Shown in pieces: positions 204 to 13,744 of a DNA stretch of 64,000 nt. The DNA comes from Alphaproteobacteria bacterium. Its GTDB lineage: Bacteria; Pseudomonadota; Alphaproteobacteria; UBA828. The stretch is taken from assembly GCA_963422645.2 (NCBI GenBank), contig CAXXVO010000012.1:192001-256000 (forward strand). Reading direction: 5' to 3'. How positions within the stretch are numbered: the first letter of the stretch is position 1; each line of letters opens with the position of its first letter. The notes beneath the pieces were generated by a model. That model was not told the DNA's origin, did not search any database, and was given only the letters and a program-made list of their open reading frames with translations. Position numbers and translations under genes: made by a program.

Positions 204-2561
204 TCAGACTTCCTGACCTCTGCTGATTTTAGGTGACACGAGCCGCGCGGATTCCGAGGCCCCGTCGATGTCGTAGACTATGCGCAGACGGGTGCCGGGG
301 AAGACCGTTTCGGTGGCGTTCAGGTCGCTCAGAACCGCATCGATCCAACGGTCGCAGGCGTCGTTTGCGAGGCCAAGAATGTGGACCCGCAGGAGGCCAT
401 TGCCAGGATCCGGCAGGATGTCGGCATCGGCGGTGAGCAGCGCTTGAAGCAGTTTCCGGGGATGGGGCTTGTGGCCCTGCGCCTGCATGACGGGAAGCAT
501 CATGCGGGTTTCGGCGCGGTAGGCGATCATCCGGATGACGTCGAGGAGGAGGCGCTCGCGCGCGGGCAAGGCATCGAGCTGCTCGGCTTCGTCGAGGTCG
601 CCGGCCCGGCAGTGCTTGGGCGTCTCCCTGCGGCTGGCCCTGACGATGTCGCGGACATCCTGGAGGTCCCTGACTTCCCTCCTGAGTTCCGCCGTCGGCT
701 GCTTCTTCCGGGCCGTGTCGGCGATGCGGTTGCGCAGGCGGCCAAGCTGGCGGTCGAGGCGATGGATTGCCTTGTCATAGGCCCGCCGCAGCGGGTTGAC
801 GACCATGGCGGCGGGATCGAGAGGCTCGAGCTCGTGGGTCGGCAGGGCGTCGAGATTGAACTCGTCACGCATGTACTTGAAGAAGTTCTCCTGCGACCAG
901 CGCGAGAACATGGCGCCCGCAACCTCAGCCATCGGCTTGTGCGGATCGGTGGTGATCAGCGGCACCTGACGGCCGTTGTCGAGCAGGCGGCGGATCTGGC
1001 GCACCCTGAAGCCGTTCGGCAACGTCACCGGCTTCTCAGCCAGCCGCATGGTGGCGCTGCCGTCCGCCGCCGGTCCGTGAATGGGAACGGTCATCGCGCC
1101 GAAGTCCTCGGCCGGCCAGTCCTCGCCCCTGAAGTTCTTGTGCCAGGTCAGGCAGGCGACGCCGCGCCTCGCCAGCCGGCGGAACAGATCCGGGCTCCAG
1201 CCCTCGCGGTCGAAGACCAGGGTGAGCGCCGGCTGGCCGGGATGCTCGGCGGTCAGGTCCGGCGCCCCGGCGCCAACGATCCCAAGCTCCTGCAGCGCCG
1301 GCACCACGTCGGCTTCGATGGCCGCGACCATCTTCGGGTCCAGCGGCTTGTGCAGACAGAGCAGCGGCTTGCCGCCCAGAGCGTTGATCCAGTAGCTGGC
1401 GCTCGCCGGCAGGCACAGCTTCTCGCGCGAGACGAAGTGCTTGGGCAAGCGCCCCTTGCGGCCGGAGTAGACCTTGACGTGCCCGTCGATGGCCAGCGTC
1501 GCCCAGAGCTCCGGCTCGTCGGCCTGCCAGCGCCTGGCAAGGGCGAGCTGCCACGCCCGCACGCCGGCCTCGTCGTCGGCGATGAGAGCGATCTTGCGGC
1601 GCAGCGTCTTGACCTCGGGGCAGCGATCGAGGCCGAGAATGGCGCCCCATTCGCCCGGCGCCTGGTAGCGCAGGCTCTCGGGGTTGCGCACCCGCGCCAA
1701 GGTCATGAAGGCCAGGAAGAGCAGGATCGTAGGCAAGCCGTAATAGCCCTTCGGCAGCAATGGCAGGAGACCGGTCTCGGAGAGAAGACCTTCCTTCAGC
1801 AGGGCCGGCAGGGCGGCGAGCACGCCGCCGAAGCGGACACCGCGGGCGGCGGCGGCGAACTGCGGTTCGACCGGCCCCGCCTGTCCACAACTGGCCAGAA
1901 CCCGAGCCGGAACATCGCAAGTCGCACGCCCCATCGGCGCCTGCCGGTCCCGCCGATCGCGCGCGCTGCGATCCGTTTGCGGCTGCGCTTCCAGCCCCGG
2001 CGCCGTCTCCGGCCCCGGGGCACCGGTACTCTCTTCATCGACACGGCCTTCAGGAGCCGCACCCGCGTCAGGCGGCGCAGCCAGCGCTGAGCGTCCGGGC
2101 TCCCCATCCGCCTCCGTGTTGCCGATCAGTCCCTGACGGCGCCACTTGTTGACCGATGGCGCTGACACGCCGAGAACCCGGGCCGCCGCAGAGCCGCTCA
2201 GGCCCGATGCCAGCAACGCCGTCGCCTTCTCCGCCAACTCCGGAGTGAACACCGACGGCCCGCGACCGCGCCGGGGCTTCATGAACCCCGCTTCGCCCTC
2301 GGCCAGGTAGCGCCGTCGTGCGCGCTGCACCGTCGCGCGCGAGACAGCGAAAGCGTCAGCCAGTTCCTGCGGCGAGACCGCGCTGATCGCCGCGAGGCGG
2401 CCGATCCGCAAGAGCATGGCCGTGCGGTCATCGGCGGCGTGGCTGTCAAAGGGAATGAGGTTGGAAAAGTAGGTGAAGGTGTCGTCCGAGATCAGGACGG
2501 CGAAGCAGCTGTTGCCGATCGAGACCGCCTCTGGAGGGCACATTGGGAGGGTACTGGGCAT
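204..2561 (-). CDS. Large DDE transposase with two N-terminal HTH segments (785 aa)
   Basis: IDGH, FDREG and RWSQENFFK motifs. The ORF fills the IR-bounded element. Confidence 0.85.
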   Translation of the reverse strand: MPSTLPMCPPEAVSIGNSCFAVLISDDTFTYFSNLIPFDSHAADDRTAMLLRIGRLAAISAVSPQELADAFAVSRATVQRARRRYLAEGEAGFMKPRRGRGPSVFTPELAEKATALLASGLSGSAAARVLGVSAPSVNKWRRQGLIGNTEADGEPGRSALAAPPDAGAAPEGRVDEESTGAPGPETAPGLEAQPQTDRSARDRRDRQAPMGRATCDVPARVLASCGQAGPVEPQFAAAARGVRFGGVLAALPALLKEGLLSETGLLPLLPKGYYGLPTILLFLAFMTLARVRNPESLRYQAPGEWGAILGLDRCPEVKTLRRKIALIADDEAGVRAWQLALARRWQADEPELWATLAIDGHVKVYSGRKGRLPKHFVSREKLCLPASASYWINALGGKPLLCLHKPLDPKMVAAIEADVVPALQELGIVGAGAPDLTAEHPGQPALTLVFDREGWSPDLFRRLARRGVACLTWHKNFRGEDWPAEDFGAMTVPIHGPAADGSATMRLAEKPVTLPNGFRVRQIRRLLDNGRQVPLITTDPHKPMAEVAGAMFSRWSQENFFKYMRDEFNLDALPTHELEPLDPAAMVVNPLRRAYDKAIHRLDRQLGRLRNRIADTARKKQPTAELRREVRDLQDVRDIVRASRRETPKHCRAGDLDEAEQLDALPARERLLLDVIRMIAYRAETRMMLPVMQAQGHKPHPRKLLQALLTADADILPDPGNGLLRVHILGLANDACDRWIDAVLSDLNATETVFPGTRLRIVYDIDGASESARLVSPKISRGQEV

Positions 2562-2715: not shown

Positions 2716-3169
2716 AGTCTGTGCTACTGCTATGTGTCCTCTACGGCTCGATCACCATATAGCACACAAACCAGCACGCAATACACATGGGCATAGTATC
2801 CTGACCTCTCCATAACGCAGCTTGCCTCAACCACATCGCACACGGTCACCGCACAGTCCCCATCCACTCAGGAACCATCCCTTTGCCTAGTATATCAGCA
2901 CAGTCTACTTCCCCATATGCAACTCGAGCACCCTACGTTGCACGCAGACGCCCATGATCACGAACCTGAAAGCCCCTTGCGCCAGCTCCCAATACCTTGT
3001 AATGTGTAACTGCCCAGGTACCCCTCTCTCTTATGGAACAAGCCAGTTCCTTTTGCGTCAACGCCCCCACGCCGCGGGGGTGCCTACTCTCTTGAGCGCG
3101 AGAGGATGATGAACGCCGCGTCGCGAACAAGATGAGAGGACAGCGATACTCAGGATGAGCCGGAGAAGT

Positions 3170-4708
3170 TCAGGAGCGCAGTATAGGGATCAGCTGCATC
3201 GGTTCCGGGTGCGCCAGGATTTGCAGGATGTTCCAGCCTTGCTTTCGAGCGGTGACGATGACGCTGCGCATTCCGGCGAAGTTGCAGGCGCCTTGCAGGG
3301 AGCGGAAGCCGCCTGAGATCTTCTCATGCACTTTGTTCATACGGATGTCACGCTCCGCCTCGTTATTCGTGAACGGCGTGCGCAGGTCGGTGAGGAAGCG
3401 CAGGCAGCCCTCCTTATGCTTTTGAAGGCGGCGCGCGAGGTTGTGGCCGATGCGGCGTTTCTTTCGCCCTCGCTTTGCGATCTGGAGCGGCGGTTGGGCC
3501 TCATGGAAGGCGATGGCTTCTTCGAGGATACGGTCCCATGCCCTTGAGATGCGGGCCACCAGGGAGGCGGGGACTTGACGGTCTTTCTCACGGGCGAAGC
3601 GGGCGGCCCTGCGCGCGCGCTGAAGCAGGCGGTGCATGCTCGCCGCCCATTCCTCCTTCTCGATGTCGATCAGGGCCTGGAGTTCGCGCAGGTGATGTGC
3701 GTTGCAGGCGCCGTGGCGGACGCCCTTGATGGTGAAGTAGGGGGCGAAGTCGTCGTGGACGAGGATGCCTTTCAGGTTCTTTTCGACATCGCCGCGTCCC
3801 TCGCCGATGCGCAGGACGGTGAGCAACGGGGTGCACAGCACATGGAGCCAGCGGGTACGGGCGGCGATACGCAGGCCGGTCTCGTCGAGGTGCTTGACCG
3901 GCGCCTGCGTGCGGATCAGATCGGCGACATGGTCGAGGAAGCCCTCGAAGCGCTGCGCTGTGCGCCGGCCCATGGCGGCGATCGTGGCAGTGGAGATGGA
4001 CACCGCGAAGATGTCGCTCATGAGTTCGGCCAGACGCTTCTCGGGCACGAACTGGGCGTACAGCAGGTAACTCACCCAAGCGGTGATGCGAGGGCCGTAC
4101 TGGACCGGGGCGGTGACGCCCGGCGGGAAGGCGGCTCGTGTCAGCGTGCCGCATGCGCCGCAGAGGCAGCGATGGGCGCGGTGTTCGGTGACCTCGAGAG
4201 GCTGCGGCTCGGGTACGTCGAAGACCTGCCGACAGGCGGGCGCGCCTTGCCGGTCGGCGTCCGAGAGCTCGACGCCACAGCCGGAACAGGTGGAGGGGTG
4301 GTGATCGACGACACGGTCCGGGCTGTCGCTCCGCGCGAGGGTGGTTCCCTTGTGGCCGGGCTGGCCGCCACTGGGCCCGCCGGACTTTCCGCGCTGGCTT
4401 TGGGTGCGCCTCTGGGCTCCGCTTTTCTTCTTGAGCCCGTCGCTGGCGGGGGGCTTGCTGCTTGTGGTGCTGTTGAGGGCCGCGCTGCGCTCGAGTTCGG
4501 CGATGCGCTCGCGCAGGGCCGCGTTCTCCTGCTCGAGTGCGGCATTTTCCCGGGCGAGCGCGGTGGCTGATCGCAGCAGCCCCTGCCCCCATTCCCGGAC
4601 GGCAACGACGACAGTGGTTGCGAGGGATGATGGCTCGAGAAGCTCCTTCAGGCAGCAGAAGGCCTCGTTACGGGCGGCGAGGTCTTCGTGCCAGTGCGAC
4701 ACCGTCAC
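3170..4708 (-). CDS. tnpC: IS66 family transposase TnpC
   Basis: Coiled coil, NSTTSSKPPASD, Cys zinc finger, LDETG, VHDDF and TNNEAERDIR. The GTG start at 4708 overlaps the MTase stop (GTGA). Confidence 0.9.
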   Translation of the reverse strand: MTVSHWHEDLAARNEAFCCLKELLEPSSLATTVVVAVREWGQGLLRSATALARENAALEQENAALRERIAELERSAALNSTTSSKPPASDGLKKKSGAQRRTQSQRGKSGGPSGGQPGHKGTTLARSDSPDRVVDHHPSTCSGCGVELSDADRQGAPACRQVFDVPEPQPLEVTEHRAHRCLCGACGTLTRAAFPPGVTAPVQYGPRITAWVSYLLYAQFVPEKRLAELMSDIFAVSISTATIAAMGRRTAQRFEGFLDHVADLIRTQAPVKHLDETGLRIAARTRWLHVLCTPLLTVLRIGEGRGDVEKNLKGILVHDDFAPYFTIKGVRHGACNAHHLRELQALIDIEKEEWAASMHRLLQRARRAARFAREKDRQVPASLVARISRAWDRILEEAIAFHEAQPPLQIAKRGRKKRRIGHNLARRLQKHKEGCLRFLTDLRTPFTNNEAERDIRMNKVHEKISGGFRSLQGACNFAGMRSVIVTARKQGWNILQILAHPEPMQLIPILRS

Positions 4709-5370
4709 GTGTCTTCGGCCTCGACGGCCATCATGGCGGCGAGCACGGCGAGGCGTTCGCCCGGCGGCAAGGCCTGGTAGCGCCGGCCCCAGTTGGCTGC
4801 CTTGCGCTTGATGCGCTGGCGGTCGGTGAAGTTCCGGCCTGCGTGGCTGGCCCAATGCATCCGGTCGGGGGCGTAGTTGAACCAGACGACCTCGGTTCGC
4901 ACCAGACCCTGGGTCGTGACCTGCAGCGCCAGCCGGCGCCATCCCGCCAGCACCTCGTCATAGAGCGCCGACGGATGGCCCGAGATCATGACCTGGCAGG
5001 GCAGAGCCTTGAGCAGCGCGAGAAGCGCGACGTGGCCGGCCTCCTCGTACTCGAAGCGGTAGCGCTGCGCCGAGCGGCGGGTCGCGTGCAGATAGGGCGG
5101 ATCGCTGTAAACCAGCTCCGGGCCCAGGAACGGGAACGAGGCCAGGAAGTCATGGGCACAGCCGTGAACCAGATCGACCGGGTAGTCGCAGACGAAGGCC
5201 TCGAGCGCCTGCGCATCGCGGTCGATGCCGATCGAACGCACGGCCGGCGGCTTGCGCTTCATCAGCGCCCCGCCCCCAAGGTGGCTTTCGATGTAGACGG
5301 AGTGCGGCGGCATCAGCGCAATCAGCGCTTGGCACAGACCTGCTGTCGCCTTCGAGCCGAAATACCCCAT
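4705..5370 (-). CDS. DNA N6-adenine methyltransferase (Dam/D12-like, short, 221 aa)
   Basis: YFGSK, SAM-binding ESHLGGGA and catalytic SDPPY, in alpha-class order. Confidence 0.85.
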   Translation of the reverse strand: MGYFGSKATAGLCQALIALMPPHSVYIESHLGGGALMKRKPPAVRSIGIDRDAQALEAFVCDYPVDLVHGCAHDFLASFPFLGPELVYSDPPYLHATRRSAQRYRFEYEEAGHVALLALLKALPCQVMISGHPSALYDEVLAGWRRLALQVTTQGLVRTEVVWFNYAPDRMHWASHAGRNFTDRQRIKRKAANWGRRYQALPPGERLAVLAAMMAVEAEDT

Positions 5371-5670
5371 GGACCGCTCCCGTCACGCGAGAGAGCAGTC
5401 CATAGTCCCGCAACTCTATGAGGTCAAGAACCAATCGCGGTGGCAGAACCAGGCCGCGGCCGCCGCCATAATCACCGTCCTCAACTCAGGATTGGGGTAC
5501 CTGGGTAGTTACTGTAATGTAACTTACTATTCGGGAGAAAAAGCACTCTATAGATTTTCCAATGTAACGAACGTCTACAGTATCAAGTCTTCGCACCCCG
5601 AATCGGTTCTGAGTTCTGGACCAGTCATAAGAGCCTCGTGGCCAGGCCGCAAGCGCGCGATCAGGTGACC

Positions 5671-11343: not shown

Positions 11344-11578
11344 TAGGGTGTAGTGTGAGTTGGCGGGTGCCTTGCGCTCCGGAAGAGAGGGGACAAGTCG
11401 TACCGGCGAGGTGATTCACGTACGATCGCAAATCCCCTATGCCCTTGACGGCATAGTGTTATAGCCAGTCGTAACCGTTGACGCTTATCATGGTCATGCT
11501 CAAACTTTCGCCGTCGAGTCGGTCGTCACGATACTCAGTATCGAACCCACGAAAGTGAAATGGGAGCAAGCAATGAAC

Positions 11579-13466
11579 GTAACTGCCCAGGTTCTTGCTG
11601 TGAAAATTCTCTGGGATTCGGCACAACGCTACCCACGCGACGCCCGTGTGCTCCTCTGGGGTCGCCGGGTTTCACAGCTCACGATGCCCCTCTTGCGGAC
11701 TGCGACCGGTAAGCTACCCCGATGTGGCCCGAAGTCCGCCCGCGCGACGGGCACCGATTTTCATTCTATGGGGTGGTCCAGCACGGCGTCGACCATGATC
11801 GTTTATGAGAATGGCTCCGCTGTTGGAGAACCCGTGCCAGGTGAGCTTACGCGCACTTGACGGTGGCGATGAGCCGATCCGATGGGCTGGTCAGGGCTTC
11901 GATGATATTCCAGCCCTGCTTTCTGGCGGTGGTGATGACGCTGCGCAGGATGGCGAAGTTCTCGGCCCCCTGCGCGGACCGGAAGCCCCCGGAGATCTTC
12001 TGGCGCAGCTTCATCATCCGAAGGTCGCGCTCGGCCTCGTTGTTCGTGAACCCGACCTCGAGGTCGATCAGGAACCGGAGCACCGCGCATTTGTGGTCGC
12101 GCAGCCTCAAGGCCAGATTGTGACCGATCCTTCGCTTCCGGCGCTTCTTCCTCTTGCCAGGCGAGAACGGTGGTTGGCTCTCGTGAAAGGCCAGCGCATC
12201 GGCGATGATCTCGTCGTATCGGCGCTCGATCAGCGCCACAAGCCTCGCCGGAACGGCGATATCCTTGTCCAGCGCGATGCGGGCGGCGCGATTGGCTCGG
12301 CGCAGGAGCTGCTGCATCCGCCGGGCCCAAGCCTCCCCTTCGATGTCCACCAGCGCCTGCAACTCCCGCAGGTGATGGGCGTTGCACAGGCCGTGCTCCA
12401 CCCCTTCCATCGCGAAGTACGGCTTCCAGTGATCGTGCACGACGATGCCGGAGACACCCGAGAGCAGGGCGCCGCGCTTGCCGCTGACCCGGTACGCCGC
12501 CAGCAGCGGCGTGCAGATCACATGAAGCCACTGCGTCTGACCGCCGATCCGCAAGCCGGTCTCGTCCATGTGTTTCACCCGCGCCGTGCCCGCCGCCAGG
12601 TCCTGTATGTGCAAGGCCGCGTCCCGCAGCCGCTCGGCCGCCCTCTCGCTCATCGTCGCCAACGTCGCAGCCGTCACCGGCGCGCCGAAGAGCTCGGCCA
12701 TCACCTGCGACAGCCGATCCTCCGGCAGGAAGTGAGCGTGCTGAAGGTAGACCGCCACCCCGGCAATGCGCGGGCCGTACTGCACCGGCGCCGACACCCC
12801 GTCGGGGAACGCCGCCCGGGTCACCGTCCCGCAATGCCCGCAGCACTTGGCATGCGCCCGGTGCTCGGTCACCTCCAGGGGGCTCGGCTCGGGCAGATCG
12901 AACACCTGGCGGGCGACGGGCGTTCCCGCCCTGGCCGCGTCCGAAAGCGGCGAACCGCATCCCTTGCAGGAAGCCGGGACGTGATCCTTCACCCGATCCG
13001 GGTGATCGGCGCGGCGCAGCGTCTTGCCCTTGTGGCCGGGCTGGCCACCGGGCTTGCGGCCCGATTTGCCGCGCAGGCTTCGGGTTCGCCGCTTCGAATT
13101 CGGCTTCCTCAGCCCATCGCTCGAAGGCGGCTTGCCGCTGTTGCCGCTGTTGAGGCCGAGACGGCGCTCCAACTCCTCGATGCGCTCGACGAGACGCGCG
13201 ACTTGCTCTTCCAGCCGCGCGTTCTGCTGCCGAAGCCAGGCATTTTCCTCCCGAAGCCGGGCGTTCTCCTCCTCCAGGCGGGCGATCTTCTGCGCGGGCG
13301 TTTCGGGCGCTGCTCCCGTCGAAGGGCCGCGCGGCGACTCGGGATTGCTCATGTCGTTGTTGAGTCATTTCCCGAAATTCCCGTCAAGCCCTTTCCACCA
13401 ACTCCGAACGAGAAACGCCTCAATCCACTGGCCCAAAATGACAAATCAGACGACCTGGGCAGTTAC
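11579..13466 (-). mobile_element. Complete single-ORF IS66-family element inserted at the hupB start
   Basis: Perfect 14-bp IR GTAACTGCCCAGGT at 11579-11592 and 13453-13466. 8-bp TSD CAATGAAC at 11571-11578 and 13467-13474. Confidence 0.95.
11847..13352 (-). CDS. tnpC: IS66 family transposase TnpC
   Basis: NSGNSGKPPSSD, zinc finger, MDETG, VHDHW and TNNEAERDLR. Clearly related to the transposase at 3170-4708. Confidence 0.92.
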   Translation of the reverse strand: MSNPESPRGPSTGAAPETPAQKIARLEEENARLREENAWLRQQNARLEEQVARLVERIEELERRLGLNSGNSGKPPSSDGLRKPNSKRRTRSLRGKSGRKPGGQPGHKGKTLRRADHPDRVKDHVPASCKGCGSPLSDAARAGTPVARQVFDLPEPSPLEVTEHRAHAKCCGHCGTVTRAAFPDGVSAPVQYGPRIAGVAVYLQHAHFLPEDRLSQVMAELFGAPVTAATLATMSERAAERLRDAALHIQDLAAGTARVKHMDETGLRIGGQTQWLHVICTPLLAAYRVSGKRGALLSGVSGIVVHDHWKPYFAMEGVEHGLCNAHHLRELQALVDIEGEAWARRMQQLLRRANRAARIALDKDIAVPARLVALIERRYDEIIADALAFHESQPPFSPGKRKKRRKRRIGHNLALRLRDHKCAVLRFLIDLEVGFTNNEAERDLRMMKLRQKISGGFRSAQGAENFAILRSVITTARKQGWNIIEALTSPSDRLIATVKCA

Positions 13467-13468
13467 CA

Positions 13469-13744
13469 ATGAACAAGGCTGAGCTGATCAAGGCTGTCGC
13501 GAGCAGCGCGGACATCTCCAGTGCCGACGCGGTGCGCGCGGTGGACAGCGTGTTCGGCGCCATTACTGACACGCTACGGAGCGGCTCCGATGTCAGATTG
13601 GCGGGGTTTGGGTCGTTCAGCGTCGTCGAAAGGAAGGCCACGACCGGGCGAAACCCCCGTACCGGCGAATCCATTTCGATTGCCGCCTCCAAGCAGCCGA
13701 AGTTCAAGGCCGGCAAGACGCTCAAGGACGCGGTCAACGACTGA
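13469..13744 (+). CDS. hupB: DNA-binding protein HU
   Basis: MNKAELI, GFGSF, GRNPRTGE and PKFKAGKTLKDAVN. Confidence 0.95.
   Translation: MNKAELIKAVASSADISSADAVRAVDSVFGAITDTLRSGSDVRLAGFGSFSVVERKATTGRNPRTGESISIAASKQPKFKAGKTLKDAVND

Follow-up and report, generated by a model that had tools for sequence, protein, structure and literature searches.

An insertion sequence (IS) of the IS66 family occupies positions 3006-5512, on the minus strand, of a 64,000-nucleotide stretch of an alphaproteobacterial genome (assembly GCA_963422645.2, contig CAXXVO010000012.1, positions 192,001 to 256,000; hereafter the window). This 2507-bp element is active, has no tnpA or tnpB, and has its transposase gene, tnpC, driven by a captured cassette of ~760 bp. 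The cassette consists of a promoter with a dyad, a leader hairpin and an open reading frame (ORF) for a methyltransferase-like protein of the Dam fold, here called MTase. It is under purifying selection, has been exchanged between IS families, and looks like a common control module of at least three unrelated ones rather than a chance passenger. We put at roughly 0.55 the probability that the cassette controls how much transposase is made, through a protein that binds, and perhaps methylates, the dyad in the cassette's own promoter.

The exchange is seen in the genomic surroundings of MTase relatives. At E<=1e-3 there are 3706 such proteins, the best 120 of which are all at least 70% identical to MTase, with many on contigs of 1-3 kb; at the 50% identity level there are 5660 clusters. 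Relatives are encoded at 354 genomic places, a single genome often having many of them, in Alpha-, Beta- and Gammaproteobacteria, Tectimicrobiota, Planctomycetota, Bacillota, Chloroflexota and Acidobacteriota. Among the 80 loci kept for neighbourhood counts, MTase comes first in an operon-like pair with a transposase gene in 76, at gaps of -13 to +67 nt. The partner is an IS66 TnpC at 68 loci (65 recognised by tblastn, three truncated), an IS701-family transposase at seven (NF049999, 300-311 bits against a cutoff of 170) and an ISAs1-like transposase (DDE_Tnp_1_assoc plus DDE_Tnp_1) at one, while two loci lie at contig ends and two have no clear partner. A second ISAs1-like pairing was found on an unrelated metagenome contig (L154). 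The IS66 partners themselves form two deep clades, either ~68-92% or 27-34% identical to the TnpC of the window. MTase is 66-95% identical across IS66 loci (66-75% where TnpC is only 27-34% identical), 83-85% in IS701-type elements and 70-72% in ISAs1-like elements. The IS701-type elements are multi-copy and enclose MTase within their own inverted repeats (IRs; CTCGACTTTGTACA...) and 5-bp duplications (CTNAG, TTCAG). When an IS701-type locus (L038) is set against an IS66-type locus (L011), they have nothing in common except a 760-bp block at 82.8% identity, which runs from 16 nt before the -35 box to ~20 nt past the MTase stop and includes a relic of the IS66-type GTGA junction. In an MTase tree from which one frameshifted row (L037) and identical rows had been dropped, the IS-borne genes form one clade against plasmid homologues (support 97/96), and the IS701 copies are nested within the IS66 copies (100/96, 18 rows).

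Not every context of the cassette fits this pattern. On a 34-kb metagenome contig the promoter, dyad and MTase are followed by a gene for an Ogg-type helix-hairpin-helix DNA glycosylase (PF22175, 2.6e-16; L125:2063-3589) and not by a transposase gene, a non-IS context for the cassette. The IS701-type elements have a third small divergent ORF of 95 aa between the IR and the cassette (L038:3472-3759, minus strand; also L036, L049 and L076), with a weak DUF3024 match (E 3e-4). No IS1182 partner was seen at the loci examined. Two further associations were rejected. A link to IS1634 (L063) fell away when the block common to L063 and L044 was found to stop 114 nt before the IS1634 gene, L044 having a different neighbour, and an apparent hydrolase fusion (L077), together with L040 and L084, proved to be truncated N-termini of IS66 clade-B transposases.

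Selection on MTase is purifying. The ratio of nonsynonymous to synonymous substitution rates (dN/dS) has a median of 0.234 and a range of 0.079-0.54 over 1076 pairs taken at 0.05<dS<1.5, and within the same elements MTase, at 0.12-0.23, is more constrained than TnpC, at 0.24-0.28. A preliminary description of the window, made by reading the sequence, had allowed that the pairing might be a one-off capture in neutral decay; it is instead widespread and selected. The distribution is nonetheless patchy and bursty: the IS-type MTase gene is present in none of 400 other genomes sampled evenly from the phylum, and in three of 20 other genomes of the genus, with 1, 16 and 2 copies.

The control region is conserved along with the ORF. 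Upstream of MTase, the pattern TTGAC(A)-17 bp-TATGG(T) recurs in clade A and clade B of IS66, in elements of the IS701 and ISAs1-like types, and before a plasmid homologue of 55% identity. Of 47 unique upstream stretches 46 contain TTGAC, and the 17-bp spacing to a hexamer starting with TA holds in 40 of 42. Within this promoter lies a dyad of the general form CATAG-N10-12-CTATG, with CATAG at positions 3-7 of the spacer and CTATG running into the -10 box. Of 78 loci, 50 have the dyad in its strict form and 67 in a looser one (two loci too near a contig end were left out), and the same CATAG-N10-CTATG precedes the 55%-identical plasmid homologue. Dyad cells are 92.5% complementary, as compared to 14-53% with the partner slid, and three sequences have both halves changed together (CGTAG...CTACG). 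Within the genome 59 of 60 dyads fall in copies of the window IS and the sixtieth beside a diverged copy, with ~7 expected by chance. A metagenome scan by the promoter pattern alone returned 120 matches, of which 50 have an MTase gene 20-45 nt downstream; where at least 900 nt lie beyond that gene, a clade-B IS66 TnpC follows in 15 of 19. The other 70 matches have no MTase at E<=1e-5; some of them are at contig ends, and they may be chance matches.

Between promoter and ORF the transcript would fold into a hairpin of -12.2 kcal/mol (z -1.90). In single-sequence folds against shuffles, z is negative for 18 of 20 leaders from diverse elements (range +0.39 to -3.62), and the stem sequence differs between clades. 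RNAalifold gave no consensus on a MAFFT alignment of the leaders, in which the hairpin arms of different clades are offset by one column.

Structural modelling of MTase (AlphaFold, with 33 relatives; mean predicted local distance difference test score 78.6) indicates a catalytic domain of the Dam type, from which the target-recognition insert of Dam has been lost and to which two C-terminal helices have been added. The model aligns best with E. coli Dam (2g1p; Z 18.0, root-mean-square deviation 2.3 A, 148 residues), followed by T4 Dam (1yf3; Z 17.4) and DpnM (2dpm; Z 17.2), with generic methyltransferases at 14.5 or below (structural alignment; Foldseek was also run). Model residues 1-167 cover residues 8-270 of E. 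coli Dam with 148 aligned, so that the insert is absent, and residues 168-221, with predicted helices at 181-199 and 203-218, are unmatched. A stretch of 54 residues separates motif I (HLGGGA, at 30-35) from DPPY (at 90-93), in agreement with the ~55 noted in the preliminary description along with the missing recognition domain. Throughout the 33 relatives D90, P91, P92, E28 and G32-34 are invariant, and FGSK, HLGGGA, IGIDxD and DPPY are invariant or nearly so. By profile the assignment is far weaker: MTase has no Pfam match at E<=0.01, and the matches to PF02086 (E=0.16, 12.1 bits against a cutoff of 22) and TIGR00571 (E=1e-4, 22.1 bits against 114.85) are restricted to the DPPY region and fall below the curated cutoffs of the D12 class, of which MTase has the catalytic fold, motif I and DPPY and lacks the target-recognition domain. 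A few relatives carry a precomputed PF02086 match, phrog_56 ('DNA methyltransferase') matches MTase at 2e-17, and a PDB search with the family profile returned only a weak DpnM match (E 0.0014) plus spurious TPR matches. A homodimer prediction scored 0.29 against a mark of 0.42 and was used neither for nor against any reading.

MTase belongs to the Upf31 family by 46.7% identity over residues 1-206 and by its C-terminal helical domain; Upf31 itself (upf31.0 of IncP-1beta plasmids such as pBP136) is 46-47% identical over 93% of the length and keeps all Dam motifs. According to the accessible part of the preprint on Upf31 (10.1101/2024.02.05.579024), on which all we say of that protein's behaviour relies, Upf31 strongly represses its own promoter (0.09 versus 4.76 XylE units), at which there are inverted repeats, and has a C-terminal dimerisation domain at aa 175-225 that is needed for its phenotype.

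From this plasmid relative and from the sequence we infer that MTase would bind its own dyad and, once bound, would repress the cassette promoter and thereby the transposase gene closely coupled to it. The element would then make little transposase, whatever its insertion site, and still less as copy number rises. The protein may also methylate, its likely narrow target being the adenines in TAG/CTA within the dyad, of which one, in the right half, would be the -11 adenine of the -10 box; the promoter would then be sensitive to hemimethylation after replication, as with host Dam for IS10. Since the S-adenosylmethionine (SAM)-binding and DPPY residues are invariant, we consider methylation likely, and either the chemistry or at least SAM-dependent binding would still be under selection. 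More tentative is an 'epigenetic governor', in which the protein would methylate and bind the dyad, the -11 adenine included, and the operon would fire only briefly from hemimethylated DNA after replication and be shut off as copies accumulate. Under such a governor any transposase family could adopt the cassette, because the cassette carries its own site, and the IS66, IS701 and ISAs1-like families did.

Several observations count against control of the transposase through the dyad. In the window copy, whose -10 box is TATGGA, a simple scan for sigma-70 promoters detects none. The right half of the dyad coincides with that box, so its conservation may in part be promoter conservation, and the double change is confined to three of 35 sequences, a count reached by 21 of 500 shuffles. 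The centres of the half-sites lie ~16 bp apart, a distance that departs from the usual one turn. The Upf31 operator, CAGCATCG, differs from the window dyad, and the two proteins are only 46% identical. As for methylation, Upf31 gave neither GATC methylation nor a signal when methylase-free E. coli was sequenced by the single-molecule real-time (SMRT) method, in a test strain that did not contain the plasmid's own repeat sites (10.1101/2024.02.05.579024, accessible part). An IS66 without MTase is equally abundant in the genome.

The alternative that fares best, which we nevertheless consider doubtful, is that MTase is a site-specific orphan adenine methylase and a true passenger, providing anti-restriction or some other benefit to the host, a function assumed also for its relatives on conjugative plasmids and phages, with a dyad that autoregulates the methylase only. 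Relatives at 46-56% identity do reside on plasmids (196 records, of which 134 are conjugative) and phages (78 records), and on one Xanthomonas plasmid the gene has transfer and establishment genes around it; the motifs for catalysis do not vary, and ISs with methyltransferase passengers are on record, such as IS220, cited in the accessible text of PMC11891212. A passenger, however, would not need a fixed position at the head of the transposase operon in three IS families, a genome holding ~80 copies of the gene would be an odd way to supply a protective methylase, and the tested member, Upf31, showed no methylation in the available part of its report.

The preliminary description preferred other readings, a low-specificity or a transposase-targeted m6A writer, and the comparative evidence favours neither. 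A low-specificity writer, its specificity lost with the target-recognition domain, might alter the host methylome or shield DNA from many restriction enzymes, and the absence of the Dam insert is what such a reading would expect, as non-specific Dam-like enzymes do exist (Hia5, Hin1523 and Nme1821, PMC3299994; M.EcoGII, PMC5778455). The accessible text of PMC3299994, however, describes enzymes of 281 aa with a divergent insert at residues 80-170 and DPPY at 194. We therefore rejected Hia5 and M.EcoGII as architectural precedents, since the insert is retained, as far as the available parts of these papers go. In the accessible part of its report (10.1101/2024.02.05.579024) overexpressed Upf31 left no kinetic signal in methylase-free E. 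coli, where a promiscuous enzyme could not have hidden, and the conserved dyad at the cassette's own promoter argues for sequence-specific binding. On account of the Upf31 result and the dyad we regard a broad methylome writer as unlikely; of the effects that had been suggested for the enzyme, regulation of transposition stays plausible.

A dedicated partner of the IS66 transposase that replaces TnpA and TnpB, binds TnpC or the IS66 ends and joins the transposition reaction is very unlikely because the cassette is used across IS families: although MTase takes the place that tnpA and tnpB have in IS66 elements of three genes, overlaps tnpC tightly, and accompanies a TnpC whose first 50 residues have no counterpart in an MTase-less sister TnpC, its close relatives serve IS701-family transposases with unrelated ends and ISAs1-like transposases, the cassette alone is common to these elements, IS66 elements that have this IR core and tnpC alone thrive in the absence of the protein, and no dyad lies within the IRs.

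The anatomy of the element itself is given in Table 1. IS66 elements are characterised by IRs starting with GTAA and an 8-bp target duplication, both of which are present here, and in canonical three-gene members tnpA and tnpB lie upstream of tnpC. In the window the ORF list of the element holds the MTase-like gene and tnpC only, with no tnpA, tnpB or restriction gene; beside MTase there is no restriction endonuclease gene, its neighbours being tnpC inside the IS and unrelated genes outside. Because there are just two genes in 2507 bp, the upstream one encoding a Dam-fold protein, the element belongs with the tnpC-only IS66 group. TnpC matches DDE_Tnp_IS66 (PF03050, 4.4e-41), DUF6444 and zf-IS66 in Pfam and NF033517 in NCBIfam (289.7 bits against a cutoff of 180). 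The tnpC frame of the window copy is open further upstream, but relatives such as L011 begin exactly at the overlap with MTase. The two genes are putatively coupled in translation. The repeats, duplication, gene order, GTGA overlap and lack of a restriction gene had all been read correctly in the preliminary description, and its view that MTase moves inside the element is borne out by the copies described below.

Table 1. Features of the cassette-bearing IS66 element and of the sister IS66 in the window (TSD, target-site duplication).
Feature	Position	Strand	Basis or remark
TSD, left copy, TGTAATGT	2998..3005		Read from sequence; identical to 5513-5520
Terminal IR, transposase-distal end, GTAACTGCCCAGGTACCCC	3006..3024		19 nt, 95% complementary to 5494-5512
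tnpC, IS66-family DDE transposase, 512 aa, GTG start	3170..4708	-	Pfam and NCBIfam matches
GTGA overlap of MTase stop (TGA) and tnpC start (GTG)	4705..4708	-	Sequence; also in IS66A-type relatives
MTase, Dam-fold Upf31-family protein without target-recognition domain, 221 aa	4705..5370	-	Motifs FGSK, HLGGGA, IGIDRD, DPPY
Predicted leader hairpin directly after the -10 box	5374..5398	-	3' arm holds Shine-Dalgarno GGGAG (5377-5381)
Cassette promoter, TTGACC (5422-5427), 17-bp spacer, TATGGA (5399-5404)	5399..5427	-	Conserved upstream pattern
Dyad, CATAG (5416-5420)-N10-CTATG (5401-5405)	5401..5420	-	Putative operator and/or methylation site
Terminal IR, promoter-proximal end	5494..5512		19 nt, paired with 3006-3024
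TSD, right copy, TGTAATGT	5513..5520		Read from sequence
IS66 without cassette	11579..13466	-	tnpC 11847-13352 (501 aa) only; 14-nt IR core GTAACTGCCCAGGT common to both elements
TSD of IS66 without cassette, CAATGAAC	11571-11578 and 13467-13474		Direct repeat

The genome (5.9 Mb in 23 contigs) holds 36 full-length copies of the element, 99.7-100% identical, and many fragments that other ISs have cut. Perfect 8-bp duplications of their own, at different and mostly AT-rich sites, flank 22 of the 36, and the MTase ORF varies at three sites with no indels over all of them; the element is an active IS. In the IR at ~3020 the window copy is without one C of a C-run, the extra C being present in the other 35 of 36 copies. 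Matching duplications are missing from 14 copies, several of which have reciprocally swapped flanks, for example GACTCTCC/ATGTATTC at C9:531722 and ATGTATTC/GACTCTCC at C6:391794, as expected for scars of recombination or rearrangement between IS copies. Another repeat, ending in CAGACTTCCTGACCTC, repeatedly truncates the element at identical internal positions (element positions ~179, 415 and 437); it resembles an IS that has a hotspot within the tnpC-distal end. Another IS66 lineage with the cassette contributes 24 full MTase copies (MTase 84-88% identical at the amino-acid level, TnpC ~76%), for example at C10:127908-128567 and C8:733609-734268, and two MTase genes of this lineage have an in-frame TAG. 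With this lineage the genome holds ~80 copies of the MTase gene.

The sister IS66 without the cassette encodes a TnpC 60% identical to that of the cassette-bearing element. It had been proposed as a natural control, and the relationship is real, as witnessed by the common IR core, its own TSD and its single gene. This genome carries no fewer than 37 full copies of it, a number that matches the cassette-bearing IS; the cassette is therefore either not needed for proliferation there or acts in trans. Many cassette-bearing copies are inserted in the ends of the sister IS, with the flanks GACAAATC, GAAACGCC, GTCATTTC and GAAAATTC corresponding to sister sequence near 13441, 13411, 13365 and 11602, which suggests that the cassette-bearing IS targets IR-proximal DNA of the sister element. 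At the window site, the target DNA immediately outside the duplication (5513-5530) reads GTAACTTAC and resembles an IS66 IR tip; the insertion may have landed next to IR-like sequence. The insertion occupies an AT-richer spacer upstream of a gene at 204-2561 (minus strand), which adjoins the insertion site and encodes a 785-aa Transposase_29 protein (PF21804, 6e-101) with N-terminal helix-turn-helix domains; a Transposase_29-related gene also adjoins the cassette in locus L044.

Insertion sequences are thought to regulate themselves by family-specific tricks. ISs that carry a methyltransferase are already on record (IS220, in the accessible text of PMC11891212), and PMC9296519 lists IS66 counts and orphan methylases and draws no link between them. 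The cross-family cassette and the promoter dyad appear to be new: within the literature, ISfinder not being covered, we found no published description of a methylase-bearing IS66 group, of such a cassette or of such a dyad. If the control proposed here is true, a regulatory cassette more strongly conserved than its transposases, and moved between unrelated IS families, would add a new level of modularity to mobile DNA.

Among known systems, the closest transposase relatives are IS66 elements without tnpA and tnpB, which we take to be the ISBst12 group of ISfinder. The window element resembles them in its DDE_Tnp_IS66 transposase (zipper and zinc finger at the N-terminus), its IRs starting with GTAA and its 8-bp duplication; those elements, of which the second IS66 of the window is an example, have one gene, whereas the window element adds the cassette before tnpC. 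In its control the cassette recalls that of IS10 and IS50 by host Dam, which couples transposase expression to replication and otherwise damps it. An adenine-methylation site over the -10 region of a transposase promoter would be common to both, but there the methylase is the host's and the site is GATC, whereas the window element would supply both enzyme and site itself. With E. coli Dam, T4 Dam and DpnM the protein has in common the catalytic Rossmann fold (Z 17-18, 2.3-2.6 A), an N-terminal xGxK, motif I and DPPY; it differs in being without the ~100-residue recognition insert in having ~50 additional C-terminal helical residues and in falling short of the Pfam and TIGRFAM cutoffs, and its methylase activity is putative. 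Upf31 is similar in that a globular domain of the Dam fold is followed by a helical domain at the C-terminus, and in its TTGACA promoter with a repeat abutting the -35 box. It is a reported autorepressor, where for the window cassette a conserved promoter dyad is seen and repression would follow by analogy; it is also a single plasmid backbone gene with no transposase link, and is proposed to act through KorB, which the IS does not have (10.1101/2024.02.05.579024, accessible part). The IS elements thus offer a natural context for a family annotated everywhere as 'DNA adenine methylase' of which the one tested member, in the available part of that report, did not methylate. Transporter ISs, such as IS220 with its methyltransferase (PMC11891212, accessible text), likewise carry a non-transposase gene that lies inside the IRs and moves along with the element. 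In contrast to these, the extra gene of the window element has its own promoter, heads the transposase operon, is constrained more than the transposase and occurs in three IS families.

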